This document shows, piece after piece, positions 27,542 to 59,951 of a DNA stretch of 59,951 nucleotides. Position 1 is the stretch's first letter; each line of letters opens with the position of its first letter. Source of the stretch: Escherichia coli (GTDB lineage: Bacteria; Pseudomonadota; Gammaproteobacteria; Enterobacterales; Enterobacteriaceae); the NCBI RefSeq assembly GCF_003334335.1, contig NZ_QOWQ01000031.1; one strand, given 5' to 3'. The notes under the pieces were generated by a model, which was given only the letters and a program-made list of their open reading frames with translations, ran no database searches and was not told the DNA's origin. The position numbers were made by a program, and so were the translations under genes.

Positions 27542-27557
27542 AGCAATAATTGTGCCA
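27542..27557 (-). promoter_or_regulatory. Sigma54 -24/-12 promoter for the hyp operon
   Basis: Minus strand reads CTGGCACAATTATTGCT (GG-N10-GC), about 30 bp upstream of the hypA start. Confidence 0.55.
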
Positions 27558-27670
27558 GTGTTGATTATCCCTGCGGTGAATAATGTCGATGATGTCGAAA
27601 TGACACGTCGACACGGCGACGAAATTCATCTTTAGCTTAAAAATCTCTTTAATAACAATAAATTAAAAGT

Positions 27671-27686
27671 TGGCACAAAAAATGCT
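27671..27686 (+). promoter_or_regulatory. Sigma54 -24/-12 promoter for the hyc operon
   Basis: TGGCACAAAAAATGCT (GG-N10-GC), about 37 bp upstream of the hycA ATG; FhlA-dependent in E. coli. Confidence 0.6.
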
Positions 27687-27722: not shown

Positions 27723-28184
27723 ATGACTATTTGGGAAATAAGCGAGAAAGCCGATTACATCGCACAGCGGCATCGTCGCCTACAGGACCAGTGGCACATC
27801 TACTGCAATTCGCTGGTTCAGGGGATCACGTTATCGAAAGCGCGCCTGCATCACGCCATGAGCTGCGCGCCGGACAAAGAACTCTGTTTCGTCCTTTTTG
27901 AACATTTTCGCATTTACGTCACCCTGGCGGATGGCTTTAACAGCCACACCATCGAGTATTACGTCGAAACAAAAGATGGCGAAGACAAACAGCGGATTGC
28001 GCAGGCGCAACTGAGCATTGACGGCATGATTGATGGCAAGGTCAACATCCGCGATCGCGAACAGGTTCTGGAACACTATCTCGAAAAAATCGCTGGCGTT
28101 TACGACAGCTTATACACCGCTATTGAAAACAATGTGCCGGTGAATTTAAGCCAACTGGTAAAGGGACAAAGCCCGGCAGCATGA
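27723..28184 (+). CDS. hycA: Formate hydrogenlyase regulatory protein HycA
   Basis: 153-aa ORF; first gene of the hyc operon. Confidence 0.88.
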   Translation: MTIWEISEKADYIAQRHRRLQDQWHIYCNSLVQGITLSKARLHHAMSCAPDKELCFVLFEHFRIYVTLADGFNSHTIEYYVETKDGEDKQRIAQAQLSIDGMIDGKVNIRDREQVLEHYLEKIAGVYDSLYTAIENNVPVNLSQLVKGQSPAA

Positions 28185-38890: not shown

Positions 38891-39904
38891 ATGATGACGA
38901 CGATGCTGGAAGTGGCGAAGCGCGCCGGGGTTTCAAAAGCGACCGTTTCCCGCGTGCTTTCAGGTAATGGCTACGTCAGCCAGGAGACTAAAGATCGCGT
39001 GTTTCAGGCGGTAGAAGAGAGCGGTTACCGTCCAAACTTGCTGGCGCGCAATCTGTCGGCGAAGAGTACTCAGACGCTGGGGCTGGTAGTGACCAACACG
39101 CTTTACCACGGCATTTATTTTAGTGAATTACTCTTTCATGCCGCGCGAATGGCGGAAGAGAAAGGGCGGCAGTTGCTATTGGCAGATGGTAAACACAGCG
39201 CAGAAGAAGAGCGCCAGGCGATTCAGTATCTGCTGGATCTGCGCTGCGACGCGATCATGATTTACCCGCGTTTTTTAAGCGTGGATGAGATCGATGACAT
39301 CATTGACGCGCACAGTCAGCCGATAATGGTGCTTAATCGCCGCCTGCGCAAAAACAGCAGCCATAGCGTCTGGTGCGATCATAAACAGACCAGTTTTAAC
39401 GCCGTGGCAGAGTTGATAAACGCCGGGCATCAGGAGATTGCTTTCCTTACCGGCTCGATGGATTCCCCCACCAGCATTGAACGTCTTGCCGGGTATAAAG
39501 ACGCGCTGGCGCAGCATGGTATTGCGCTCAATGAAAAACTTATCGCTAACGGTAAATGGACGCCTGCCAGCGGGGCCGAAGGGGTAGAAATGTTGCTCGA
39601 ACGTGGGGCTAAATTTAGCGCGTTAGTTGCCAGTAACGACGATATGGCGATAGGTGCGATGAAAGCGTTACACGAGCGCGGCGTAGCGGTGCCAGAGCAG
39701 GTGTCAGTTATCGGATTCGATGATATCGCTATTGCCCCCTACACCGTTCCGGCGCTCTCCAGCGTAAAAATTCCGGTGACTGAGATGATTCAGGAAATTA
39801 TTGGACGGCTGATTTTTATGCTCGATGGCGGGGATTTCTCACCGCCGAAAACCTTCAGCGGAAAACTGATCCGCCGCGACTCACTCATTGCTCCTTCGCG
39901 ATAA
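38891..39904 (+). CDS. ascG: LacI-family repressor of the asc operon
   Basis: Start trimmed to MMTTMLEVAKRAGVSKATVSRVL (337 aa); appears intact, with no IS insertion. Confidence 0.88.
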   Translation: MMTTMLEVAKRAGVSKATVSRVLSGNGYVSQETKDRVFQAVEESGYRPNLLARNLSAKSTQTLGLVVTNTLYHGIYFSELLFHAARMAEEKGRQLLLADGKHSAEEERQAIQYLLDLRCDAIMIYPRFLSVDEIDDIIDAHSQPIMVLNRRLRKNSSHSVWCDHKQTSFNAVAELINAGHQEIAFLTGSMDSPTSIERLAGYKDALAQHGIALNEKLIANGKWTPASGAEGVEMLLERGAKFSALVASNDDMAIGAMKALHERGVAVPEQVSVIGFDDIAIAPYTVPALSSVKIPVTEMIQEIIGRLIFMLDGGDFSPPKTFSGKLIRRDSLIAPSR

Positions 39905-40052
39905 ACATTGTCATCACATGTCATCGTCACTAGTGTCGATGACATCGTTTTTCCTGCATTACAGAAATTAATTTCCTTAAATAACAGTAAATTAAAAACT
40001 GGCATGATTTGTGAATGTATCGGCGCATTAACTGTCATTGCTGGAGAATTTG

Positions 40053-40580
40053 ATGAACCGTTTCATCATTGCTGACGCGAGTAAATGTATTGGTTGCCGT
40101 ACCTGTGAAGTAGCGTGCGTGGTTTCTCATCAGGAAAATCAGGACTGTGCATCGCTGACCCCGGAAACTTTTTTACCGCGTATCCATGTCATTAAAGGTG
40201 TGAACATTTCCACGGCGACAGTTTGCCGTCAGTGTGAAGATGCACCGTGCGCTAACGTCTGCCCGAATGGTGCTATCAGCCGTGATAAAGGGTTTGTTCA
40301 TGTGATGCAGGAACGTTGCATTGGTTGCAAAACCTGCGTTGTGGCTTGCCCGTATGGTGCGATGGAAGTGGTGGTACGTCCGGTGATCCGCAACAGCGGC
40401 GCGGGTCTGAATGTACGGGCTGACAAAGCCGAAGCCAATAAATGCGACCTGTGCAACCATCGTGAAGACGGCCCGGCGTGTATGGCGGCTTGCCCGACTC
40501 ATGCGCTGATTTGTGTCGATCGTAATAAACTTGAACAACTGAGCGCAGAAAAACGCCGCCGTACGGCGCTGATGTTCTAA
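40053..40580 (+). CDS. hydN: Electron-transfer 4Fe-4S ferredoxin HydN
   Basis: Start trimmed to [15 protein letters not shown] (175 aa); several Cys clusters. Confidence 0.88.
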
Positions 40581-40732
40581 AAATCTTACAGAACTGTTCT
40601 GGCATCAAAGGAATTCCCGGAAATATTCGTAGAATACGGAGCGGGCGGTATCGCCGACCTGTGACTGCCGGATGCGACGCTGTCGTGTCCGGCAGGGCGG
40701 GTTACGCAATTCATGATGGCGGGAATAACTCA

Positions 40733-42985
40733 ATGGCAAAAAACACATCTTGCGGTGTCCAACTGCGTATTCGTGGCAAAGTGCAGGGCGTCGGTTTTCG
40801 TCCGTTTGTCTGGCAGCTGGCACAGCAATTAAATCTTCACGGCGATGTCTGTAATGACGGCGATGGCGTAGAAGTCCGGCTGCGGGAAGACCCGGAAACG
40901 TTTCTTGTTCAATTGTATCAGCACTGCCCGCCGCTGGCGCGTATTGATAGCGTCGAGCGTGAGCCGTTTATCTGGTCACAACTGCCCACCGAGTTCACTA
41001 TACGCCAGAGCACAGGCGGCACCATGAATACGCAAATTGTTCCCGATGCCGCTACTTGCCCTGCTTGCCTTGCCGAAATGAATACCCCAGGCGAACGGCG
41101 TTATCGTTATCCGTTTATCAACTGTACCCACTGCGGCCCGCGTTTCACCATTATTCGCGCCATGCCTTACGACCGCCCGTTTACCGTGATGGCGGCGTTT
41201 CCGCTATGTCCGGCCTGTGACAAAGAGTACCGTGACCCGCTCGATCGTCGCTTCCACGCCCAGCCGGTGGCCTGCCCGGAGTGTGGCCCGCATCTTGAAT
41301 GGGTAAGTCATGGTGAACATGCGGAACAAGAGGCGGCATTACAGGCAGCTATCGCACAGTTAAAAATGGGCAAAATTGTCGCCATCAAAGGGATTGGCGG
41401 ATTTCATCTTGCCTGCGATGCACGTAACAGTAACGCGGTGGCGACACTTCGGGCGCGCAAACATCGCCCGGCGAAACCGCTGGCGGTCATGTTGCCAGTG
41501 GCTGACGGTTTACCAGACGCTGCGCGCCAGTTGCTTACCACGCCCGCCGCGCCGATTGTGCTGGTGGATAAAAAATACGTTCCTGAGCTTTGTGATGATA
41601 TCGCCCCTGACCTTAACGAAGTCGGGGTAATGTTGCCTGCGAACCCGCTCCAGCATTTGCTGTTACAGGAACTGCAATGCCCGCTGGTGATGACCTCCGG
41701 CAACCTGAGCGGTAAACCACCAGCTATCAGCAACGAACAGGCGCTGGCGGATTTGCAGGGCATTGCCGACGGATTCTTGATACATAACCGCGACATCGTG
41801 CAGCGGATGGATGATTCGGTGGTGCGCGAAAGCGGCGAAATGCTGCGCCGTTCGCGGGGGTATGTGCCGGATGCGCTGGCTTTGCCTCCGGGCTTTAAAA
41901 ATGTTCCGCCTGTGCTGTGTCTCGGCGCGGATCTGAAAAATACCTTCTGCCTGGTGCGCGGTGAACAAGCGGTGTTGAGTCAGCATCTGGGCGATTTAAG
42001 TGACGATGGCATCCAGATGCAGTGGCGCGAAGCGTTACGCCTGATGCAAAACATCTACGATTTTACCCCGCAATACGTTGTGCATGACGCGCATCCGGGC
42101 TATGTCTCCAGCCAGTGGGCGCGTGAAATGAATCTGCCGACGCAAACGGTACTGCATCATCATGCCCATGCAGCGGCGTGTCTGGCAGAGCATCAGTGGC
42201 CGCTGGATGGCGGTGATGTCATTGCTTTGACGCTCGACGGTATCGGTATGGGGGAGAACGGCGCTTTGTGGGGCGGCGAGTGCCTGCGGGTGAACTATCG
42301 CGAATGTGAGCACCTGGGCGGCTTGCCTGCAGTGGCGCTTCCGGGTGGCGATTTGGCAGCGAAGCAGCCGTGGCGAAACCTGCTGGCGCAGTGCCTGCGC
42401 TTTGTGCCGGAGTGGCAGAATTACTCTGAAACAGCAAGTGTGCAACAGCAAAACTGGAGCGTGCTGGCGCGGGCCATTGAGCGTGGAATTAACGCGCCGC
42501 TGGCGTCATCGTGTGGGCGTTTTTTCGATGCAGTGGCGGCGGCACTGGGCTGTGCGCCAGCCACGTTAAGTTATGAAGGTGAAGCGGCTTGTGCTCTGGA
42601 GGCGCTCGCAGCCTCATGCCACGGAGTGACGCATCCGGTGACAATGCCGCGGGTGGACAATCAACTGGATCTCGCCACTTTCTGGCAGCAGTGGCTGAAC
42701 TGGCAGGCACCGGTTAATCAACGCGCGTGGGCGTTTCATGATGCGCTGGCGCAGGGTTTTGCCGCGTTGATGCGTGAGCAGGCCACGATGCGTGGTATCA
42801 CTACGCTGGTATTTAGCGGCGGGGTTATTCATAACCGTTTGCTGCGTGCACGTCTGGCGCATTATCTCGCTGATTTCACATTGCTCTTTCCACAGAGTTT
42901 ACCGGCGGGTGATGGCGGTTTGTCTCTGGGGCAGGGGGTTATTGCTGCGGCGCGTTGGTTAGCGGGTGAAGTCCAGAACGGATAA
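40733..42985 (+). CDS. hypF: [NiFe]-hydrogenase maturation carbamoyltransferase HypF
   Basis: Start trimmed to [25 protein letters not shown] (750 aa); acylphosphatase domain, two CxxC zinc fingers, YrdC-like and Kae1-like domains. Confidence 0.9.
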
Positions 42986-43009
42986 AACGTGTTGCATTTG
43001 GACACCATT

Positions 43010-43092
<83 letters not shown>

Positions 43093-43112
43093 TTTTAGGC
43101 ACAGTAGCCCAC

Positions 43113-44246
43113 CTACATCGGCAATGTTTTCAACAATCCAAATGCCTCTTTCATCCGATCCTCACTGACCACAAAGGCGCGAAGCTGGTCAGCATCGTCA
43201 ACGCCGCGCGCCACCATTCCCTGGCGTTCGGTATTAATTTGCCAGCGTAAATCCTGACGCTGGGTTTCGCCTGCCAGATGCAGCGGTAATTCCGGCGTTT
43301 TGATTTTCACCAGCATCGCCGGGAGTTTCAGCGGCGTGTTATTGCCGAGAAGATTTTTTGCCAGCACCATCGCGCTAAGTTGAATCGGCTGGAGGAACGG
43401 CAATACCTGACCGTTAATTTCCGCGCAATCGCCCAGCGCGTAAATATCGGTATTACTGGTTTGCAGATAACTATCGACGCAAACGCCGCGATTAATCGTC
43501 AGCCCGGCGCGTCGTGCCAGGGCGGTTTCCGGGCGCAGTCCGGTGGCGGCAATTACCGCATCCACTTCGATGCTACGCTGGCGGTCCAGCGTTGCCAGAA
43601 TGCCAGAATCCGTTTTTTCCAGCCCCTGCAACTGAGATTTCAACAGCAGATGAACACCCATCTCCGTCAACCGATGCTGCAAGCGGCTGCTTACTTCCGG
43701 TGGCATTAACGACGCCAGAATACTGGCAGCGTTGTCGATTAGCGTGACCGCTTTGCCTGCACGACAAAAATCCATCGCCAGTTCGCTACCAATCAAACCA
43801 CCGCCAACAATCAACACGCGTCGGGCATCCCGCAGTTGCGTTTCACAGGCGCGATACTCTTGCTGACTATTTAACGTCAGCATTAACTCACGCCCAGGCA
43901 CAGGCGGGACAAAGGCGCTGGCACCGGTTGCCAGCACTAACTTGTCGTATTGCCACTGATTATTCTGGCTTTTCACCACATGGGCTTCGGCATCGATATC
44001 CGTCACCCAGGTGTGCGGAAACAGGCGCAGATTAAACTGCTCGGCAAATTCACCCGCCGTCTGGCGGGTAAGGTCGTCGGCACGTTGCCCCTGACTGATA
44101 ACATGGCTGAGGTCAGGTTTGTTGTACTCATCTATGCTGTCGGCGGCAATCAAGGTTAATGGAATAGTGGCGTCCTGTTTGCGAATATTTTTCACCAGTT
44201 GTCGGGCGGCGAAGCCCGAACCAATGATCACAATGCCGTTGCTCAT
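43113..44246 (-). CDS. norW: NADH:flavorubredoxin oxidoreductase
   Basis: 377-aa ORF with FAD/NAD(P)-binding GxGxxG motifs. Confidence 0.9.
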
Positions 44247-45682
44247 TTTGCCTCCGATGCCAGTTCGTCAAAGACGTCTTTGCCGAGGGAGCATTCCGGG
44301 CACAGGAAGTTATCCGGGACTTCACTCCACGGCGTTCCTGGTGCAACGTCCTGCATTGGCTCGCCTTTTGCCGGATCGTAAATCCACCGGCAGACGCTGC
44401 ACTGCATCCGTGGGCCGAGGTCAGCCGTCGTGGCGGCAGAGGTTTCTTCTTTAACTACCGTATTCACCGTGCTCTGCGGCAGCGGCGCGAGCGCCCACTG
44501 ACGGGCGATTTCGCGACCGTGTTCACGGCATAACTCCAGAGCGTCCTGGTCTGGTCGCCATTTGGCTTTCAGGCTGAGCGACATTTCGAAACCCGCATCC
44601 TGCAGGCGCGTGGAAAGACGATCCACCGCACCGCCGCTCCAGCCGTGAGAGCCGAAAGCACTGGCGCGTTTGTTACGGAAGCGTAAACCAGTCATCTCCT
44701 CCACCAGCCCGGCGATTTTCGGCATCATCACGTTATTCATCGTCGAAGTGCCGACCAGCACGCCTTTTGAGCGGAAGACATTGGTCAGGATTTCGTTTTT
44801 ATCGCTTCGGGCGACGTTGAAAATTTTCACCGCCACGCGTGGGTCGGTTTCCGCAATCCCCTGGGCGATAGCGTCAGCCATCATGCGGGTGTTATTCGAC
44901 ATGGTGTCGTAGAAAATGGTGATTCTGTCTTCCTGATAATCAGCCGCCCATTTCAGGTACAGCTCGACAATTTGCGTCGGGTTATCGCGCCAGACCACGC
45001 CGTGGGAGGTCGCTATCATATCGACTGATAAGTTAAAGCCCAGGATCTCGGTAATTTTCGGCGTTACCAGGCGGCTGAACGGCGTCAGGATATTGGCGTA
45101 GTAACGCTGGCACTGCTCGAAAAGCTCCGTCTGATCCACTTCATCGTTGAACAGATGCTCGTCACAGTAGTGCTGACCGAAAGCATCGTTACTGAACAGC
45201 ACCGCGTCGCCTGTCAGGTAAGTCATCATGCTGTCCGGCCAGTGCAGCATTGGTGTTTCGACAAAAATGAGCTGTTTGCCGTTGCCGATATCCAGCGTGT
45301 CGCCAGTTTTCACCACATTAAAATTCCACTCCGGATGATGGTGATGACCATTTATCGAGTCGATAGCGTTGGCAGTACAGTAGATCGGCGTATCGGGAAT
45401 TTGTGCCATCAGTTCGGTCAGCGCCCCAGCGTGGTCCTCTTCTGCATGGTTAATCACGATGTAATCGATATCCGCCAGATCGATTTCATTACGCAGGTTC
45501 TGCACAAATTCGCGGCTGAATTTATGGTCGACGGTGTCGATCAGCACGTTTTTTTCTTCGCGGATGAGGTAGCTATTGTAGCTGCTGCCGCGCAGCGTTT
45601 TATATTCCGTGCCGTGAAAATCACGCACTTCCCAGTCACGTTGACCAACCCAATGAATGTTATTTTTCACCACAATAGACAT
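44243..45682 (-). CDS. norV: Anaerobic nitric oxide reductase flavorubredoxin
   Basis: 479-aa ORF: metallo-beta-lactamase-like and flavodoxin domains plus C-terminal rubredoxin (CSVC...CPEC). Confidence 0.92.
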
Positions 45683-45729
45683 AGCAACCTCAATTTATTC
45701 AGCGTGTTCTAAAAAGATGTCTTGCTAAT

Positions 45730-45745
45730 TGCAGATTGCGTGCCA
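45730..45745 (-). promoter_or_regulatory. Sigma54 -24/-12 promoter for norVW
   Basis: Minus strand reads TGGCACGCAATCTGCA, about 48 bp upstream of the norV start. Confidence 0.65.
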
Positions 45746-45800
45746 GTTTTTTATCTGATTGTTTTTACTCTATAAATAAAATTATGCCCATTAATGAGTA

Positions 45801-45856
45801 GTCAAAATGACTATCAATCAAATGGTCGATATGACAATATCTATAGTCAAATTGAC
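45801..45856. promoter_or_regulatory. Three NorR enhancer boxes (GT-N7-AC)
   Basis: GTCAAAATGAC (45801-45811), GTCGATATGAC (45825-45835), GTCAAATTGAC (45846-45856), between the divergent norR and norV starts. Confidence 0.7.
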
Positions 45857-45868
45857 AGTGAGGCAAAG

Positions 45869-47383
45869 ATGAGTTTTTCCGTTGATGTGCTGGCGAATAT
45901 CGCCATCGAATTGCAGCGTGGGATTGGTCACCAGGATCGTTTTCAGCGCCTGATCACCACGCTACGTCAGGTGCTGGAGTGCGATGCGTCTGCGTTGCTA
46001 CGTTACGATTCGCGGCAGTTTATTCCGCTTGCCATCGACGGTCTGGCAAAGGATGTACTCGGTAGACGCTTTGCGCTGGAAGGGCATCCACGGCTGGAAG
46101 CGATTGCCCGCGCCGGGGATGTGGTGCGCTTTCCCGCAGACAGCGAATTGCCCGATCCCTATGACGGTTTGATTCCTGGGCAGGAGAGTCTGAAGGTTCA
46201 CGCCTGCGTTGGTCTGCCATTGTTTGCCGGGCAAAACCTGATCGGCGCACTGACGCTCGACGGGATGCAGCCCGATCAGTTCGATGTTTTCAGCGACGAA
46301 GAGCTACGGCTGATTGCTGCGCTGGCGGCGGGAGCGTTAAGCAATGCGTTGCTGATTGAACAACTGGAAAGCCAGAATATGCTGCCAGGCGATGCCACGC
46401 CGTTTGAAGCGGTGAAACAGACGCAGATGATTGGCTTGTCCCCTGGCATGACGCAACTGAAAAAAGAGATTGAGATTGTGGCGGCGTCCGATCTCAACGT
46501 CCTGATCAGCGGTGAGACTGGAACCGGTAAGGAGCTGGTGGCGAAAGCGATTCATGAAGCCTCGCCACGGGCGGTGAATCCGCTGGTCTATCTCAACTGT
46601 GCTGCACTGCCGGAAAGTGTGGCGGAAAGTGAGTTGTTCGGGCATGTGAAAGGAGCGTTTACTGGCGCTATCAGTAATCGCAGCGGGAAGTTTGAAATGG
46701 CGGATAACGGCACGCTGTTTCTGGATGAGATCGGCGAGTTGTCGTTGGCATTGCAGGCCAAGCTGCTGAGGGTGTTGCAGTATGGCGATATTCAGCGCGT
46801 TGGCGATGACCGTTGTTTGCGGGTCGATGTGCGCGTGCTGGCGGCGACTAACCGCGATTTACGCGAAGAGGTGCTGGCAGGGCGATTCCGCGCCGATTTG
46901 TTTCATCGCCTGAGCGTGTTTCCACTTTCGGTGCCGCCGCTGCGTGAGCGGGGCGATGATGTCATTCTGCTGGCGGGGTATTTCTGCGAGCAGTGTCGTT
47001 TGCGGCAGGGGCTCTCCCGCGTGGTATTAAGTGCCGGAGCGCGAAATTTACTGCAACACTACAGTTTTCCGGGAAACGTGCGCGAACTGGAACATGCTAT
47101 TCATCGGGCGGTAGTTCTGGCGAGAGCCACCCGCAGCGGCGATGAAGTGATTCTTGAGGCGCAACATTTTGCTTTTCCTGAGGTGACGTTGCCGACGCCA
47201 GAAGTGGCGGCGGTGCCCGTTGTTAAGCAAAACCTGCGTGAAGCGACAGAAGCGTTCCAGCGTGAAACTATTCGTCAGGCACTGGCACAAAATCATCACA
47301 ACTGGGCTGCCTGCGCGCGGATGCTGGAAACCGACGTCGCCAACCTGCATCGGCTGGCGAAACGTCTGGGATTGAAGGATTAA
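45869..47383 (+). CDS. norR: Nitric-oxide-responsive sigma54-dependent activator NorR
   Basis: Start trimmed to [12 protein letters not shown] (504 aa); GAF domain, AAA+ GETGTGKE and GAFTGA motifs, C-terminal HTH. Confidence 0.9.
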
Positions 47384-48345
47384 ATAATCCCGGCCTGATA
47401 GAAATCCTGCAGGTTTATTGCGCCGGTGAGTTTGCCGTTTTCATCCACCACCGGTGCGGCAGTGATTTTGCGCTTCATCAGGATCTCTTTGGCGTCGATG
47501 GCGCGACTTTGCGATTGCAACGTGGTGCCGCCGACCGTCATCGCTTCATTGACTGGCGTGGTGAGTGCGCCGCCGCCAACCAGCCAGCGACGTAAATCGC
47601 CGTCGGTAAAGACGCCTTGTACCTGTTGTTGAGCGTCACATACCGCCACCAGCCCCAGACCGGTGCGGCTGAGTTCCAGCATCGCATCCATCACGCTGGC
47701 GGTTAACGCCACCTGTGGGATGGCATCGTCACGGCGCATCAGATGATGCACTTTATTCAGCAAGCGAGCGCCCAGTGCCCCGGCTGGGTGGGAGCGGGCA
47801 AAATCTTCTTCATTAAATCCGCGCGCCTGCATGACCGCCATCGCCAGCGCGTCACCCATCATCAGGGTATTGACGGTGCTGGAGGTCGGCGCAAGGTGCA
47901 TCGGGCAGGCTTCGCGTTCTACGGAGATATCCAGCACCGCTTTTGCCGCCAGGCCCAGCGGTGACGTCGGTTTGCCGGTCATCGCCAGCAGCGCGATAGA
48001 TTTATCTTCCAGACGCGGAATAATCAGATCCAGTTCCTTCGCGCCACCGGAGTAAGAGATAAACAGCATCACATCGCGGCTTTCGATCATCCCCAGATCG
48101 CCGTGCAGCGCTTCTGCCGGATGGACAAAAAAAGCCGGAGTGCCGGTACTGGCAAGCGTTGCGGCGATTTTCTTACCAATGTGGCCCGATTTGCCAATTC
48201 CCGAAACCACCACTTTGCCTTCACAGTGCAGGATGATATTGGCGGCGCGAACAAAATCATCGCCCAGACGTTCCGGTAAACGGCTTGCTTCCTGCAACTC
48301 CAGCATTAACGTCTGACGTCCCGCGTTCAGTAGTGCTTCACTCAT
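47380..48345 (-). CDS. gutQ: D-arabinose 5-phosphate isomerase (SIS + CBS domains)
   Basis: 321-aa ORF; last gene of the srl/gut operon. Confidence 0.88.
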
Positions 48346-49111
48346 TGCTCTCTCCGGTTATGATCACATCGATCCCTTTCTCTTCCAGCGCCTGACGAAA
48401 CGCCGGATCGATACCTGCGTCGGTAATCAGCTTATCGACGCTTTCAAGACTGCAAACTACGTTGGGGCTTTTACGGCCAAACTTTGATGAGTCCGCCATC
48501 AAAATCACTTCGCGCGCGGCATTGCACATTGCCTTACTGACGGTATAAACCTCGTTAAAGGTGGTTACGCCCGCATTGAGATCGATGCCGTCGGTGCCCA
48601 TAAACAATTTATCGAAGGTGAAATGCTCGAAGGCATTCTCTGCCAGTTGCCCGTGAAATGAGGCCGATTTTTTGCGAAACGTTCCGCCTGGCATCAGGAT
48701 AGTTTGTTCGTTATCCAGTTCGGATAGCGCATTGACGATATGCAGGCTGTTGGTCATCACCGTGATGTTATTAAAGCGCGAGAGCAGGGGAACCATCTGC
48801 AAAACGGTACTGCCAGCATCAAGAATGATCGAATCGCCATCATGGATAAAACTAACGGCAGCTTCTGCAATCAGCTCTTTCTTGTGGGTGTTGATGAGTG
48901 TTTTATGATCGATAGGCGGATCGGATTCCTCTTTATTCAACACCACTCCGCCATAAGTACGAATGACGGTTCCGGCATGTTCCAGAATGACCAGATCTTT
49001 GCGAATGGTTGTGCCTGTGGTGTCAAAGTATTGCGCCAATTCTTCAACCGAGCATTTACCCTGCTTTTGCAGATACTCCAGAATGGCGGCCTGACGCTGA
49101 CGAGGTTTCAT
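48338..49111 (-). CDS. srlR: Glucitol operon repressor (DeoR family)
   Basis: 257-aa ORF with N-terminal HTH. Confidence 0.88.
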
Positions 49112-49177
49112 GGGCGTGATTACCTGATTTAGGTTTCAAAATGATAACTTCGCAAGCAAGTAACATTCACAACGAAA

Positions 49178-49537
49178 TTATCCACGTTTCAGTTTAAGCG
49201 CCAATGATAGAGCATTCTGTGATAGTGGATCATGGGGAAAGATCACATCGGGCTGTAAATCACCCGCATGCATACCGGTAATTGCGGGAATTTTTTGCGG
49301 TCGGGCGAAGACGGTCAGTCCTTTCATAAACAAGGTGTCGACGATGCGCTGCTGATCGTCCAGCGCGATGGCGACCACGACCCGCGGTTTAAAGCGCCCG
49401 CTGGAACGGCCCACGCCAACCCGCCCTTGCTGGCATAGTGTGTCGAAGGCACGGTTAAAACGAGAAATTTGCCAGCCGCCTAAGGCCAGTTGCGCACACC
49501 AGGCGATAACGGCGACGGTGATGAGTGCGGATACCAT
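49178..49537 (-). CDS. gutM: Glucitol operon activator GutM
   Basis: 119-aa ORF with N-terminal hydrophobic segment. Confidence 0.82.
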   Translation of the reverse strand: MVSALITVAVIAWCAQLALGGWQISRFNRAFDTLCQQGRVGVGRSSGRFKPRVVVAIALDDQQRIVDTLFMKGLTVFARPQKIPAITGMHAGDLQPDVIFPHDPLSQNALSLALKLKRG

Positions 49538-49641
49538 AACTTTTCCTTAATGTAGTGGCGGAAGTCCTGTATGCCTGATGAGCGTAGCGCATCAGGCATT
49601 CTATAGTCTCACGGAGATCCTTAATGGATCTCCGCTGTTGA

Positions 49642-50796
<1,155 letters not shown>

Positions 50797-50806
50797 GTTT
50801 CAGCCT

Positions 50807-52344
<1,538 letters not shown>

Positions 52345-56146: not shown

Positions 56147-58777
56147 ATGAGCAAGAGCACCGCTGAGATCCGTCAGGCGTTTCTCGACTTTTTCCATAGT
56201 AAGGGACATCAGGTAGTTGCCAGCAGCTCCCTGGTACCCCATAACGACCCAACTTTGTTGTTTACCAACGCCGGGATGAACCAGTTCAAGGATGTGTTCC
56301 TTGGGCTCGACAAGCGTAATTATTCCCGCGCTACCACTTCCCAACGCTGCGTGCGTGCGGGTGGTAAACACAACGACCTGGAAAACGTCGGTTACACCGC
56401 GCGTCACCATACCTTCTTCGAAATGCTGGGCAACTTCAGCTTCGGCGACTATTTCAAACACGATGCCATTCAGTTTGCATGGGAACTGCTGACCAGCGAA
56501 AAATGGTTTGCCCTGCCGAAAGAGCGTCTGTGGGTTACCGTCTATGAAAGCGACGACGAAGCCTACGAAATCTGGGAAAAAGAAGTAGGGATCCCGCGCG
56601 AACGTATTATTCGCATCGGCGATAACAAAGGTGCGCCATACGCATCTGACAACTTCTGGCAGATGGGTGACACTGGTCCGTGCGGCCCGTGCACCGAAAT
56701 CTTCTACGATCACGGCGACCACATTTGGGGGGGCCCTCCGGGAAGCCCGGAAGAAGACGGCGACCGCTACATTGAGATCTGGAACATCGTCTTCATGCAG
56801 TTCAACCGCCAGGCCGATGGCACGATGGAACCGCTGCCGAAGCCGTCTGTAGATACCGGTATGGGTCTGGAGCGTATTGCTGCGGTGCTGCAACACGTTA
56901 ACTCTAACTATGACATCGACCTGTTCCGCACGCTGATCCAGGCGGTAGCGAAAGTCACTGGCGCAACCGATCTGAGCAATAAATCGCTGCGCGTAATCGC
57001 TGACCACATTCGTTCTTGTGCGTTCCTGATCGCGGATGGCGTAATGCCGTCCAATGAAAACCGTGGTTATGTACTGCGTCGTATCATTCGTCGCGCAGTG
57101 CGTCACGGTAATATGCTCGGCGCGAAAGAAACCTTCTTCTACAAACTGGTTGGTCCGCTGATCGACGTTATGGGCTCTGCGGGTGAAGACCTGAAACGCC
57201 AGCAGGCGCAGGTTGAGCAGGTGCTGAAGACTGAAGAAGAGCAGTTTGCTCGTACTCTGGAGCGCGGTCTGGCGTTGCTGGATGAAGAGCTGGCAAAACT
57301 TTCTGGTGATACGCTGGATGGTGAAACTGCTTTCCGTCTGTACGACACCTATGGCTTCCCGGTTGACCTGACGGCTGATGTTTGTCGTGAGCGCAACATC
57401 AAAGTTGACGAAGCTGGTTTTGAAGCTGCAATGGAAGAGCAGCGTCGTCGCGCGCGCGAAGCCAGCGGCTTTGGTGCCGATTACAACGCAATGATCCGTG
57501 TTGACAGTGCATCTGAATTTAAAGGCTATGACCATCTGGAACTGAACGGCAAAGTGACTGCGCTGTTTGTTGATGGTAAAGCGGTTGATGCCATCAATGC
57601 AGGCCAGGAAGCTGTGGTCGTGCTGGATCAAACGCCATTCTATGCGGAATCCGGCGGTCAGGTTGGCGATAAAGGCGAACTGAAAGGCGCTAACTTCTCC
57701 TTTGCGGTGGAAGATACGCAGAAATACGGCCAGGCGATTGGTCACATCGGTAAACTTGCTGCGGGTTCTCTGAAAGTGGGCGACGCGGTGCAGGCTGATG
57801 TTGATGAGGCTCGTCGCGCCCGTATTCGTCTGAATCACTCCGCAACGCACCTGATGCACGCTGCGCTGCGCCAGGTTCTGGGTACTCATGTATCGCAGAA
57901 AGGTTCACTGGTTAACGACAAGGTGCTGCGCTTCGACTTCTCACACAACGAAGCGATGAAACCAGAAGAGATTCGTGCGGTCGAAGACCTGGTGAACACA
58001 CAGATTCGTCGCAATTTGCCGATCGAAACCAACATCATGGATCTCGAAGCGGCGAAAGCGAAAGGTGCGATGGCGCTGTTCGGCGAGAAGTATGATGAGC
58101 GCGTACGCGTGCTGAGCATGGGCGATTTCTCTACCGAGTTGTGTGGCGGTACTCACGCCAGCCGCACTGGTGATATTGGTCTGTTCCGCATCATCTCTGA
58201 ATCGGGTACTGCTGCAGGCGTTCGTCGTATCGAAGCGGTAACCGGAGAAGGTGCTATCGCCACCGTTCATGCAGACAGCGATCGCTTAAGCGAAGTCGCG
58301 CATCTGCTGAAAGGCGATAGCAATAATCTGGCTGATAAAGTGCGCTCAGTACTGGAACGTACGCGTCAGCTGGAAAAAGAGTTACAACAGCTTAAAGAAC
58401 AAGCTGCCGCACAGGAGAGCGCAAATCTTTCCAGTAAGGCAATTGATGTTAATGGTGTTAAGCTGTTGGTTAGCGAGCTTAGCGGTGTTGAGCCGAAAAT
58501 GTTGCGTACCATGGTTGACGATTTAAAAAATCAGCTGGGGTCGACAATTATCGTGCTGGCAACGGTAGTCGAAGGTAAGGTTTCTCTGATTGCAGGCGTA
58601 TCTAAGGACGTCACAGATCGTGTGAAAGCAGGGGAACTGATTGGTATGGTCGCTCAGCAGGTGGGCGGCAAGGGTGGTGGACGTCCTGACATGGCGCAAG
58701 CCGGTGGTACGGATGCTGCGGCCTTACCTGCAGCGTTAGCCAGTGTGAAAGGCTGGGTCAGCGCGAAATTGCAATAA
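56147..58777 (+). CDS. alaS: Alanine--tRNA ligase
   Basis: 876-aa ORF with class II aaRS catalytic, editing and C-terminal domains. Confidence 0.95.
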
Positions 58778-59512: not shown

Positions 59513-59605
59513 GGTGAGGTGGCCGAGAGGCTGAAGGCGCTCCCCTGCTAAGGGAGTATGCGGTCAAAAGCTGCATCCGGGGTTCGAATCCCCGCCTCAC
59601 CGCCA
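59513..59605 (+). tRNA. serV: tRNA-Ser (anticodon GCU)
   Basis: GGTGAGG/CCTCACC acceptor stem, long variable arm, T-arm GGTTCGAATCC, 3' GCCA; anticodon loop CTGCTAA. Confidence 0.9.
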
Positions 59606-59608
59606 TTT

Positions 59609-59685
59609 GCATCCGTAGCTCAGCTGGATAGAGTACTCGGCTACGAACCGAGCGGTCGGAGGTTCGAATCCTCCCGGATGCACCA
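59609..59685 (+). tRNA. argV: tRNA-Arg (anticodon ACG)
   Basis: GCATCCG/CGGATGC acceptor stem, anticodon loop CTACGAA, T-arm GGTTCGAATCC, 3' ACCA. Starts 3 bp after tRNA-Ser. Confidence 0.9.
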
Positions 59686-59800
59686 TATTCTACGTACTTT
59701 CAGCGATGAAGGTATGGAAGAGGTGGCGGTAATAACCGCAGGCACCAGGGAGGATAACGTTGCTTTAGCAACGGCCCGAAGGGCGAGCCGCAAGGCGAGT

Positions 59801-59819
59801 AATCCTCCCGGATGCACCA
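59801..59819 (+). repeat. 19-nt direct copy of the tRNA-Arg 3' end (AATCCTCCCGGATGCACCA) in the inter-tRNA spacer
   Basis: Identical to 59667-59685 (T-arm 3' half, acceptor 3' strand and CCA). Confidence 0.85.
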
Positions 59820-59883
59820 TCTCTTACTTGATACGGCTTTAGTAGCGGTATCAAAAAATCTGCAGTAAAGTAAGTTTCCCGAT

Positions 59884-59951
59884 GCATCCGTAGCTCAGCT
59901 GGATAGAGTACTCGGCTACGAACCGAGCGGTCGGAGGTTCGAATCCTCCCG
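59884..59951 (+). tRNA. argY: tRNA-Arg (anticodon ACG), 3' end cut by window edge
   Basis: Identical to the first 68 nt of the tRNA-Arg at 59609. Confidence 0.85.

Follow-up and report, generated by a model that had tools for sequence, protein, structure and literature searches.

The window analysed here is a 59,951-nucleotide stretch of the Escherichia coli contig NZ_QOWQ01000031.1 (assembly GCF_003334335.1), in which positions 45683–45868 are the exact 186-bp spacer between the start codons of two divergent genes, norV (ATG at 45682, minus strand) and norR (ATG at 45869). The spacer has a G+C content of 32%, compared to 53% for the whole window. norV (44243–45682, minus strand) encodes the 479-residue flavorubredoxin NO reductase (NCBIfam NF003954 equivalog, 1041.8 bits, cut-off 711, residues 1–479 covered), with a di-iron motif, HAEEDH, at residue 79 and a C-terminal rubredoxin domain matched at residues 427–472, which bears CSVC at 428 and CPEC at 461. 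The second gene of the operon, norW (43113–44246, minus strand), encodes the 377-residue NADH:flavorubredoxin reductase, as assigned by its RefSeq K-12 position and by the NF003437 equivalog (684.6 bits, cut-off 392, residues 1–377 covered). norR (45869–47383, plus strand) encodes a 504-residue NO-sensing sigma-54 enhancer-binding protein with GAF, AAA+ and helix-turn-helix domains (NF003451 equivalog, 822.2 bits, cut-off 476). The protein has the same sequence as K-12 NorR and carries the proposed iron ligands R75, D96, D99, C113 and D131, as well as R81, a GAFTGA motif at 262 and a Walker A motif at 215. A mechanical list of open reading frames extends norR to an upstream ATG at 45794; the RefSeq start is 45869. 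Both reading frames that flank the spacer are preceded by a GAGG ribosome-binding site, for norV at 45688–45691 (minus strand; 5 nt upstream of the ATG, conserved at 0.8–0.9 over 62 species) and for norR at 45860–45863 (plus strand; within a conserved block of the 62-species alignment). An initial annotation, made from the sequence alone, had described the NO-detoxification module as intact; indeed, NorR, NorV with its rubredoxin domain and NorW are all full length and score above the equivalog cut-offs.

Over positions 45683–45869 (187 bases), the window is 100% identical to E. coli K-12 MG1655. In the RefSeq annotation of K-12, the spacer match is flanked by norW, norV and norR (gene order ascG, hydN, hypF, norW, norV, norR, gutQ, srlR, gutM, srlD), so that the comparison with annotated E. 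coli norR-norV intergenic regions, which had been proposed as a check, came out as a complete match. Spacer-matching sequence was found in every one of the 5426 complete E. coli genomes, in one of them without full-length coverage. The K-12 norR–norVW intergenic region (norVp) was reportedly the subject of work by Hutchings and colleagues in 2002, Gardner and colleagues in 2003 and Tucker and colleagues in 2004. The present locus matches it at 186 of 186 bp, has the same three NorR sites and sigma-54 -24/-12 element and encodes the same NorR protein; it differs only in the downstream structural genes, which carry 36 SNPs with five NorV and six NorW substitutions. From the sites, with their identity, positions and statistics, from the intactness of all three genes and from the cross-species conservation, all computed here, we are close to certain that we are dealing with the control region between the divergent norR and norVW of E. 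coli, unchanged from K-12.

All 36 differences from K-12, found over 12,187 aligned bases (39683–51869) with no gaps, lie within 43572–45374, that is, in norW and the 3′ two-thirds of norV, where divergence amounts to about 2%; both flanks are identical. This 1.8-kb tract looks like a homologous-recombination patch. Among the residues that it alters is Q432R of NorV, adjoining the first rubredoxin CxxC. The NorV and NorW substitutions have no effect on the control region. Between hypF and norW, some 35 bp (about 43009–43043) behave like a REP-type repeat, with a median of 24 matches in each E. coli genome. Scanned against Rfam, the whole window gave matches to tRNAs only, at 59513–59951, and none in the norV-norR spacer; at least three tRNA genes are clustered at this right end, the last being cut by the window edge.

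The three GT-N7-AC boxes that had been reported between 45801 and 45856 were all found in place. They correspond to NorR enhancer site 1 (GTCAAAATGAC, 45801–45811, centred at about -87), site 2 (GTCGATATGAC, 45825–45835, centred at about -111) and site 3 (GTCAAATTGAC, 45846–45856, centred at about -132). The three mutagenic primers of Tucker et al. (2010), as well as both outer ones, map to the window. Each mutagenic primer was designed to change one site from GT-N7-AC to GG-N7-CC (PMC2831303), and each deviates from the window at two positions only: primer Site1 (on 45792–45819) at 45802 and 45810, primer Site2 (on 45817–45842) at 45826 and 45834, and primer Site3 (on 45839–45868) at 45847 and 45855. 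As these mismatches hit just the T of GT and the A of AC, the boxes in the window are the sites of that study. There, disruption of any one site led to complete loss of norVW expression and norV-lacZ induction (PMC2831303). Aerobic and anaerobic induction were almost identical in the same work (PMC2831303), so that the anaerobiosis suggested in the initial annotation is not needed for a norV-lacZ assay with NO donors.

Could such matches be functionless coincidences in AT-rich intergenic DNA? The bare pattern, on which the boxes had originally been called, is too loose to answer this question. GT-N7-AC occurs 183 times in the window, with a second cluster of three in 56 bp at 56361, and of 300 dinucleotide-shuffled versions of the window, 184 (61%) had three occurrences within 56 bp, so that such a cluster is not above chance. 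We therefore rejected clustering of the bare pattern as evidence. The sigma-54 consensus is similarly permissive, as TGGCAC-N5-TTGCA with one mismatch matched the window three times while 2.13 matches were expected, a count that is not significant. However, the actual sites are inverted repeats of greater length, and the spacer contains a trio of the extended form GTC-N5-GAC within 56 bp, which arose in none of the 300 shuffles. Moreover, conservation over some 100 species extends to the boxes and the -24 element but not to the DNA in between, and the identical sequence has been addressed directly by published mutagenesis and ChIP-seq. Shuffle test, conservation and experiments together exclude coincidence, to which we assign practically no weight.

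A fourth perfect palindrome of the form GTCA-N3-TGAC (GTCACGTTGAC, 45635–45645) lies in norV codons 13–16, about 75–85 nt downstream of the predicted transcription start. It was rejected as a NorR site because GT-N7-AC is kept there in only 21 of 114 species and the wobble position of Gly13 is free (GGC in 39, GGT in 34, GGA in 27 and GGG in 14 species). This palindrome is probably a codon coincidence.

For the cross-species comparison, one genome per species was scanned for the norV codons for WEVRDFHG, which yielded 120 loci; 115 of these, with the norV ATG 48 nt upstream of the match as expected and at least 250 nt of upstream sequence, were used. A divergent norR was present at 104 of the 115 loci. 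The interval from -200 to -95 contained three or more GT-N7-AC boxes at 105 loci, and that from -90 to -40 contained TGGCAY-N6-TG, likewise at 105 of the 115. The commonest box spacing was that of E. coli, 21/24 bp, at 53 of the 115. We then aligned 62 non-identical spacers, from 62 species, with MAFFT and scored conservation as the share of E. coli bases. The three boxes are conserved at 0.88–0.90 (site 1, 0.90; site 2, 0.88; site 3, 0.89), compared to 0.51–0.59 for the spacers between them, and TGGCAC and the TG of the -12 element reach nearly 0.99.

The sigma-54 promoter of norVW (CTGGCACGCAATCTGCA, 45730–45746, minus strand) has its -24 GG at 45744–45743 and its -12 GC at 45732–45731. A minus-strand element resembling TGGCAC-N5-TTGCA had been noted at 45730–45745; its position holds (45745–45730 reads TGGCACGCAATCTGCA), but the -12 part is CTGCA, one mismatch from the TTGCA given. 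As the consensus count is uninformative alone, support for this promoter comes from its identity with a ChIP-seq motif: Bonocora et al. (2015) attribute sigma-54 peak OS25 to norV, with a flag for experimental confirmation in EcoCyc, and its 17-mer equals CTGGCACGCAATCTGCA. In addition, gSELEX with RpoN holoenzyme gave a peak within the norR/norV spacer. With the Tucker primers and the sigma-54 ChIP-seq motif both falling on these elements, the initial assignment of a NorR enhancer architecture upstream of norV is well founded.

In Bonocora et al. (2015), transcription is predicted to start 19 bp downstream from the centre of the motif, and the distance listed to norV is 37 bp. In the window, the motif centre is at 45738; the predicted norVW start would thus be 45719 (minus strand), with a 5′ UTR of about 37 nt, in agreement with the published table. 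This +1 position is our prediction from that rule.

Three more sigma-54 promoters in the window, those of hypA, hycA and hydN in the formate-hydrogenlyase regulon (27542–27558, minus strand; 27670–27686, plus strand; 39999–40015, plus strand), are exact copies of ChIP-seq motifs of Bonocora et al. (2015). With the norVW promoter, this brings the sigma-54 promoters in the window to four, and two enhancer-binding proteins serve them. A good sigma-54-like match, TGGCACATCTACTGCA (27792–27807, plus strand), lies in sense orientation inside the hycA reading frame (27723–28184). The main text of the sigma-54 ChIP-seq paper (Bonocora et al., 2015) does not include it, and it could be a chance match or a low-occupancy intragenic site.

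The -12 element differs among genera. Conservation reaches only about 0.4 at the C of its GC, because TTGAT stands there in many genera, and 43 of the 115 norV loci contain no GG-N10-GC element in the promoter region. TGGCACG-N4-TTGAT, with A replacing the canonical -12 C, is the norV promoter sequence of the inspected loci from Enterobacter, Klebsiella, Raoultella, Providencia and Proteus, where it lies about -65 to -50 before the norV ATG. The corresponding sequence is YTGCA in Escherichia, Citrobacter and Salmonella. Measured between the first bases of site 1 and of TGGCA, the enhancer-to-promoter distance also varies; among the 115 loci it forms two classes, 53–54 bp (38 loci) and 64–67 bp (62 loci); in E. 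coli it is 66 bp. As the two classes differ by about one helical turn, this observation suggests that face-of-helix phasing is maintained.

Overall, other Enterobacterales (Salmonella, Citrobacter, Enterobacter, Klebsiella, Pectobacterium and others) share with E. coli the divergent norR, three tandem GT-N7-AC repeats at 19–21/24–25 bp spacing, a TGGCAC placed equally far from the start codon of norV and, a short way upstream of this TGGCAC, an IHF-like element. They differ from E. coli in the TTGAT of many genera, compared to CTGCA, in the two distance classes between site 1 and the -24 element, and in IHF elements that fit the consensus better than that of E. coli.

The IHF element is the one component that the initial annotation left unmentioned when it called the control region complete; for the boxes and the promoter all coordinates given were correct. 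According to the introduction of Tucker et al. (2010; PMC2831303), the DNA bound by IHF lies between the enhancers and the transcription start of norV. At a threshold of one mismatch, no IHF consensus match was found between promoter and site 1 (45746–45800); matches between sites 1 and 2 were rejected, as they lie in the wrong location. Cross-species position points to a candidate. The consensus WATCAANNNNTTR, with at most one mismatch, occurs 18–19 bp upstream of TGGCA in 81 of 103 species, compared to 2 of 103 at control offsets. At the corresponding place, 19 bp upstream of the -24 element, the window has AAACAATCAGATA (45752–45764, minus strand), a degenerate copy with two mismatches and a poor fit to the consensus. 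We infer that this may be the exact IHF site; its position agrees with the published IHF location.

We also considered whether norVW might chiefly be controlled by another NO or oxygen regulator, NsrR or FNR, binding in the spacer. NsrR control of norVW has been predicted in Photobacterium profundum (Rodionov, 2005). At five Photobacterium loci in our set, no divergent norR, NorR box or sigma-54 element was detected upstream of norV, and these loci fit the published prediction. In the E. coli spacer, however, neither an NsrR palindrome (up to four mismatches) nor an FNR box (up to two mismatches) was found, and norVW is, according to a review, the only known NorR target in E. coli. Control of norVW chiefly by NsrR or FNR is therefore hardly credible here. 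A single NarL/P-like heptamer, TACTCAT (45794–45800), lies in poorly conserved columns and is probably due to chance.

A more serious alternative concerns the direction in which the boxes act. They might mainly form an operator for negative autoregulation of norR, whose sigma-70 promoter would overlap them, with norVW activation being secondary. Only 12 bp separate the end of site 3 from the norR ATG. The enhancer block must therefore share sequence with the promoter and leader of norR, which makes autoregulation plausible. Modest autorepression of E. coli norR was reportedly seen by Hutchings and colleagues in 2002. For Vibrio norR2, negative autoregulation via NorR sites has been proposed (Rodionov, 2005). 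However, a consensus scan of 45400–46100 found no plus-strand sigma-70 promoter-like site; its sole match lies on the minus strand (45837–45810) and is at chance level. Moreover, every site is essential for norV activation (PMC2831303), so that autoregulation would add to the activator role rather than replace it. We regard a primarily operator function as possible but rather unlikely, and retain the reading of the three boxes as the NorR enhancer of norVW.

The blood isolate AF3 of E. coli (NZ_OZ547117.1; locus L125, 1501–1641), the one partial-coverage record seen for the spacer, has an exact 45-bp deletion that aligns to window positions 45812–45856. The deletion fuses site 1, GTCAAAATGAC, straight to the flank of site 3, AGTGAGGCAAAG, so that a single NorR box is left. 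It probably arose by recombination between the repeated boxes, although this record may contain an assembly error. By the results of Tucker et al. (2010; PMC2831303), norVW induction should be abolished in a strain with one box. As sites 1 and 3 are direct repeats spaced by 45 bp, one could picture a deletion-prone enhancer that offers a natural route to losing NO-inducible norVW; relatedly, the two-class spacing (53–54 and 64–67 bp) and the -12 TTGAT could mark an activation geometry tuned across Enterobacterales. We consider these ideas very unlikely to describe a real property of the system. Even if true, they would leave the identity of the window's own sequence unchanged.

NorR binding, the need for each site, sigma-54 occupancy, NO sensing and the dependence of transcription on NO, NorR and RpoN are taken from the literature on the identical K-12 sequence and, by sequence identity, would be expected in the present strain. 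In this model, NorR would be pre-assembled as a higher-order oligomer on the three inverted repeats with centres near -87, -111 and -132, as published for the identical sequence, and sigma-54 RNA polymerase would form a closed complex on the -24/-12 element. IHF would bend the AT-rich DNA between enhancers and promoter. Binding of NO to the mononuclear iron of the NorR GAF domain would then lift repression of the AAA+ ATPase, whose ATP hydrolysis, dependent on all three enhancer sites, would remodel the closed complex to the open form. Transcription of norVW would provide flavorubredoxin and its NADH reductase, and thereby the reduction of NO to N2O.

As compared from the literature, NorR-dependent promoters of hmp in Pseudomonas aeruginosa and Vibrio cholerae and of norAB in Ralstonia eutropha share with this arrangement the regulator family, tandem GT-N7-AC boxes upstream of a sigma-54 promoter and NO-responsive activation. 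They differ in the target enzymes, which are a flavohaemoglobin and a haem b3-iron NO reductase, respectively.

The control region described here is thus already known and thoroughly characterised, and it shows no deviation from the reference sequence. For the present window, its value lies in correct annotation, and no new question is opened. In synthetic biology, the region is also reported to serve as an NO-responsive part in biosensors. The strain carries an intact wild-type NO-detoxification switch, and the experimental results obtained with K-12 therefore apply to it directly.
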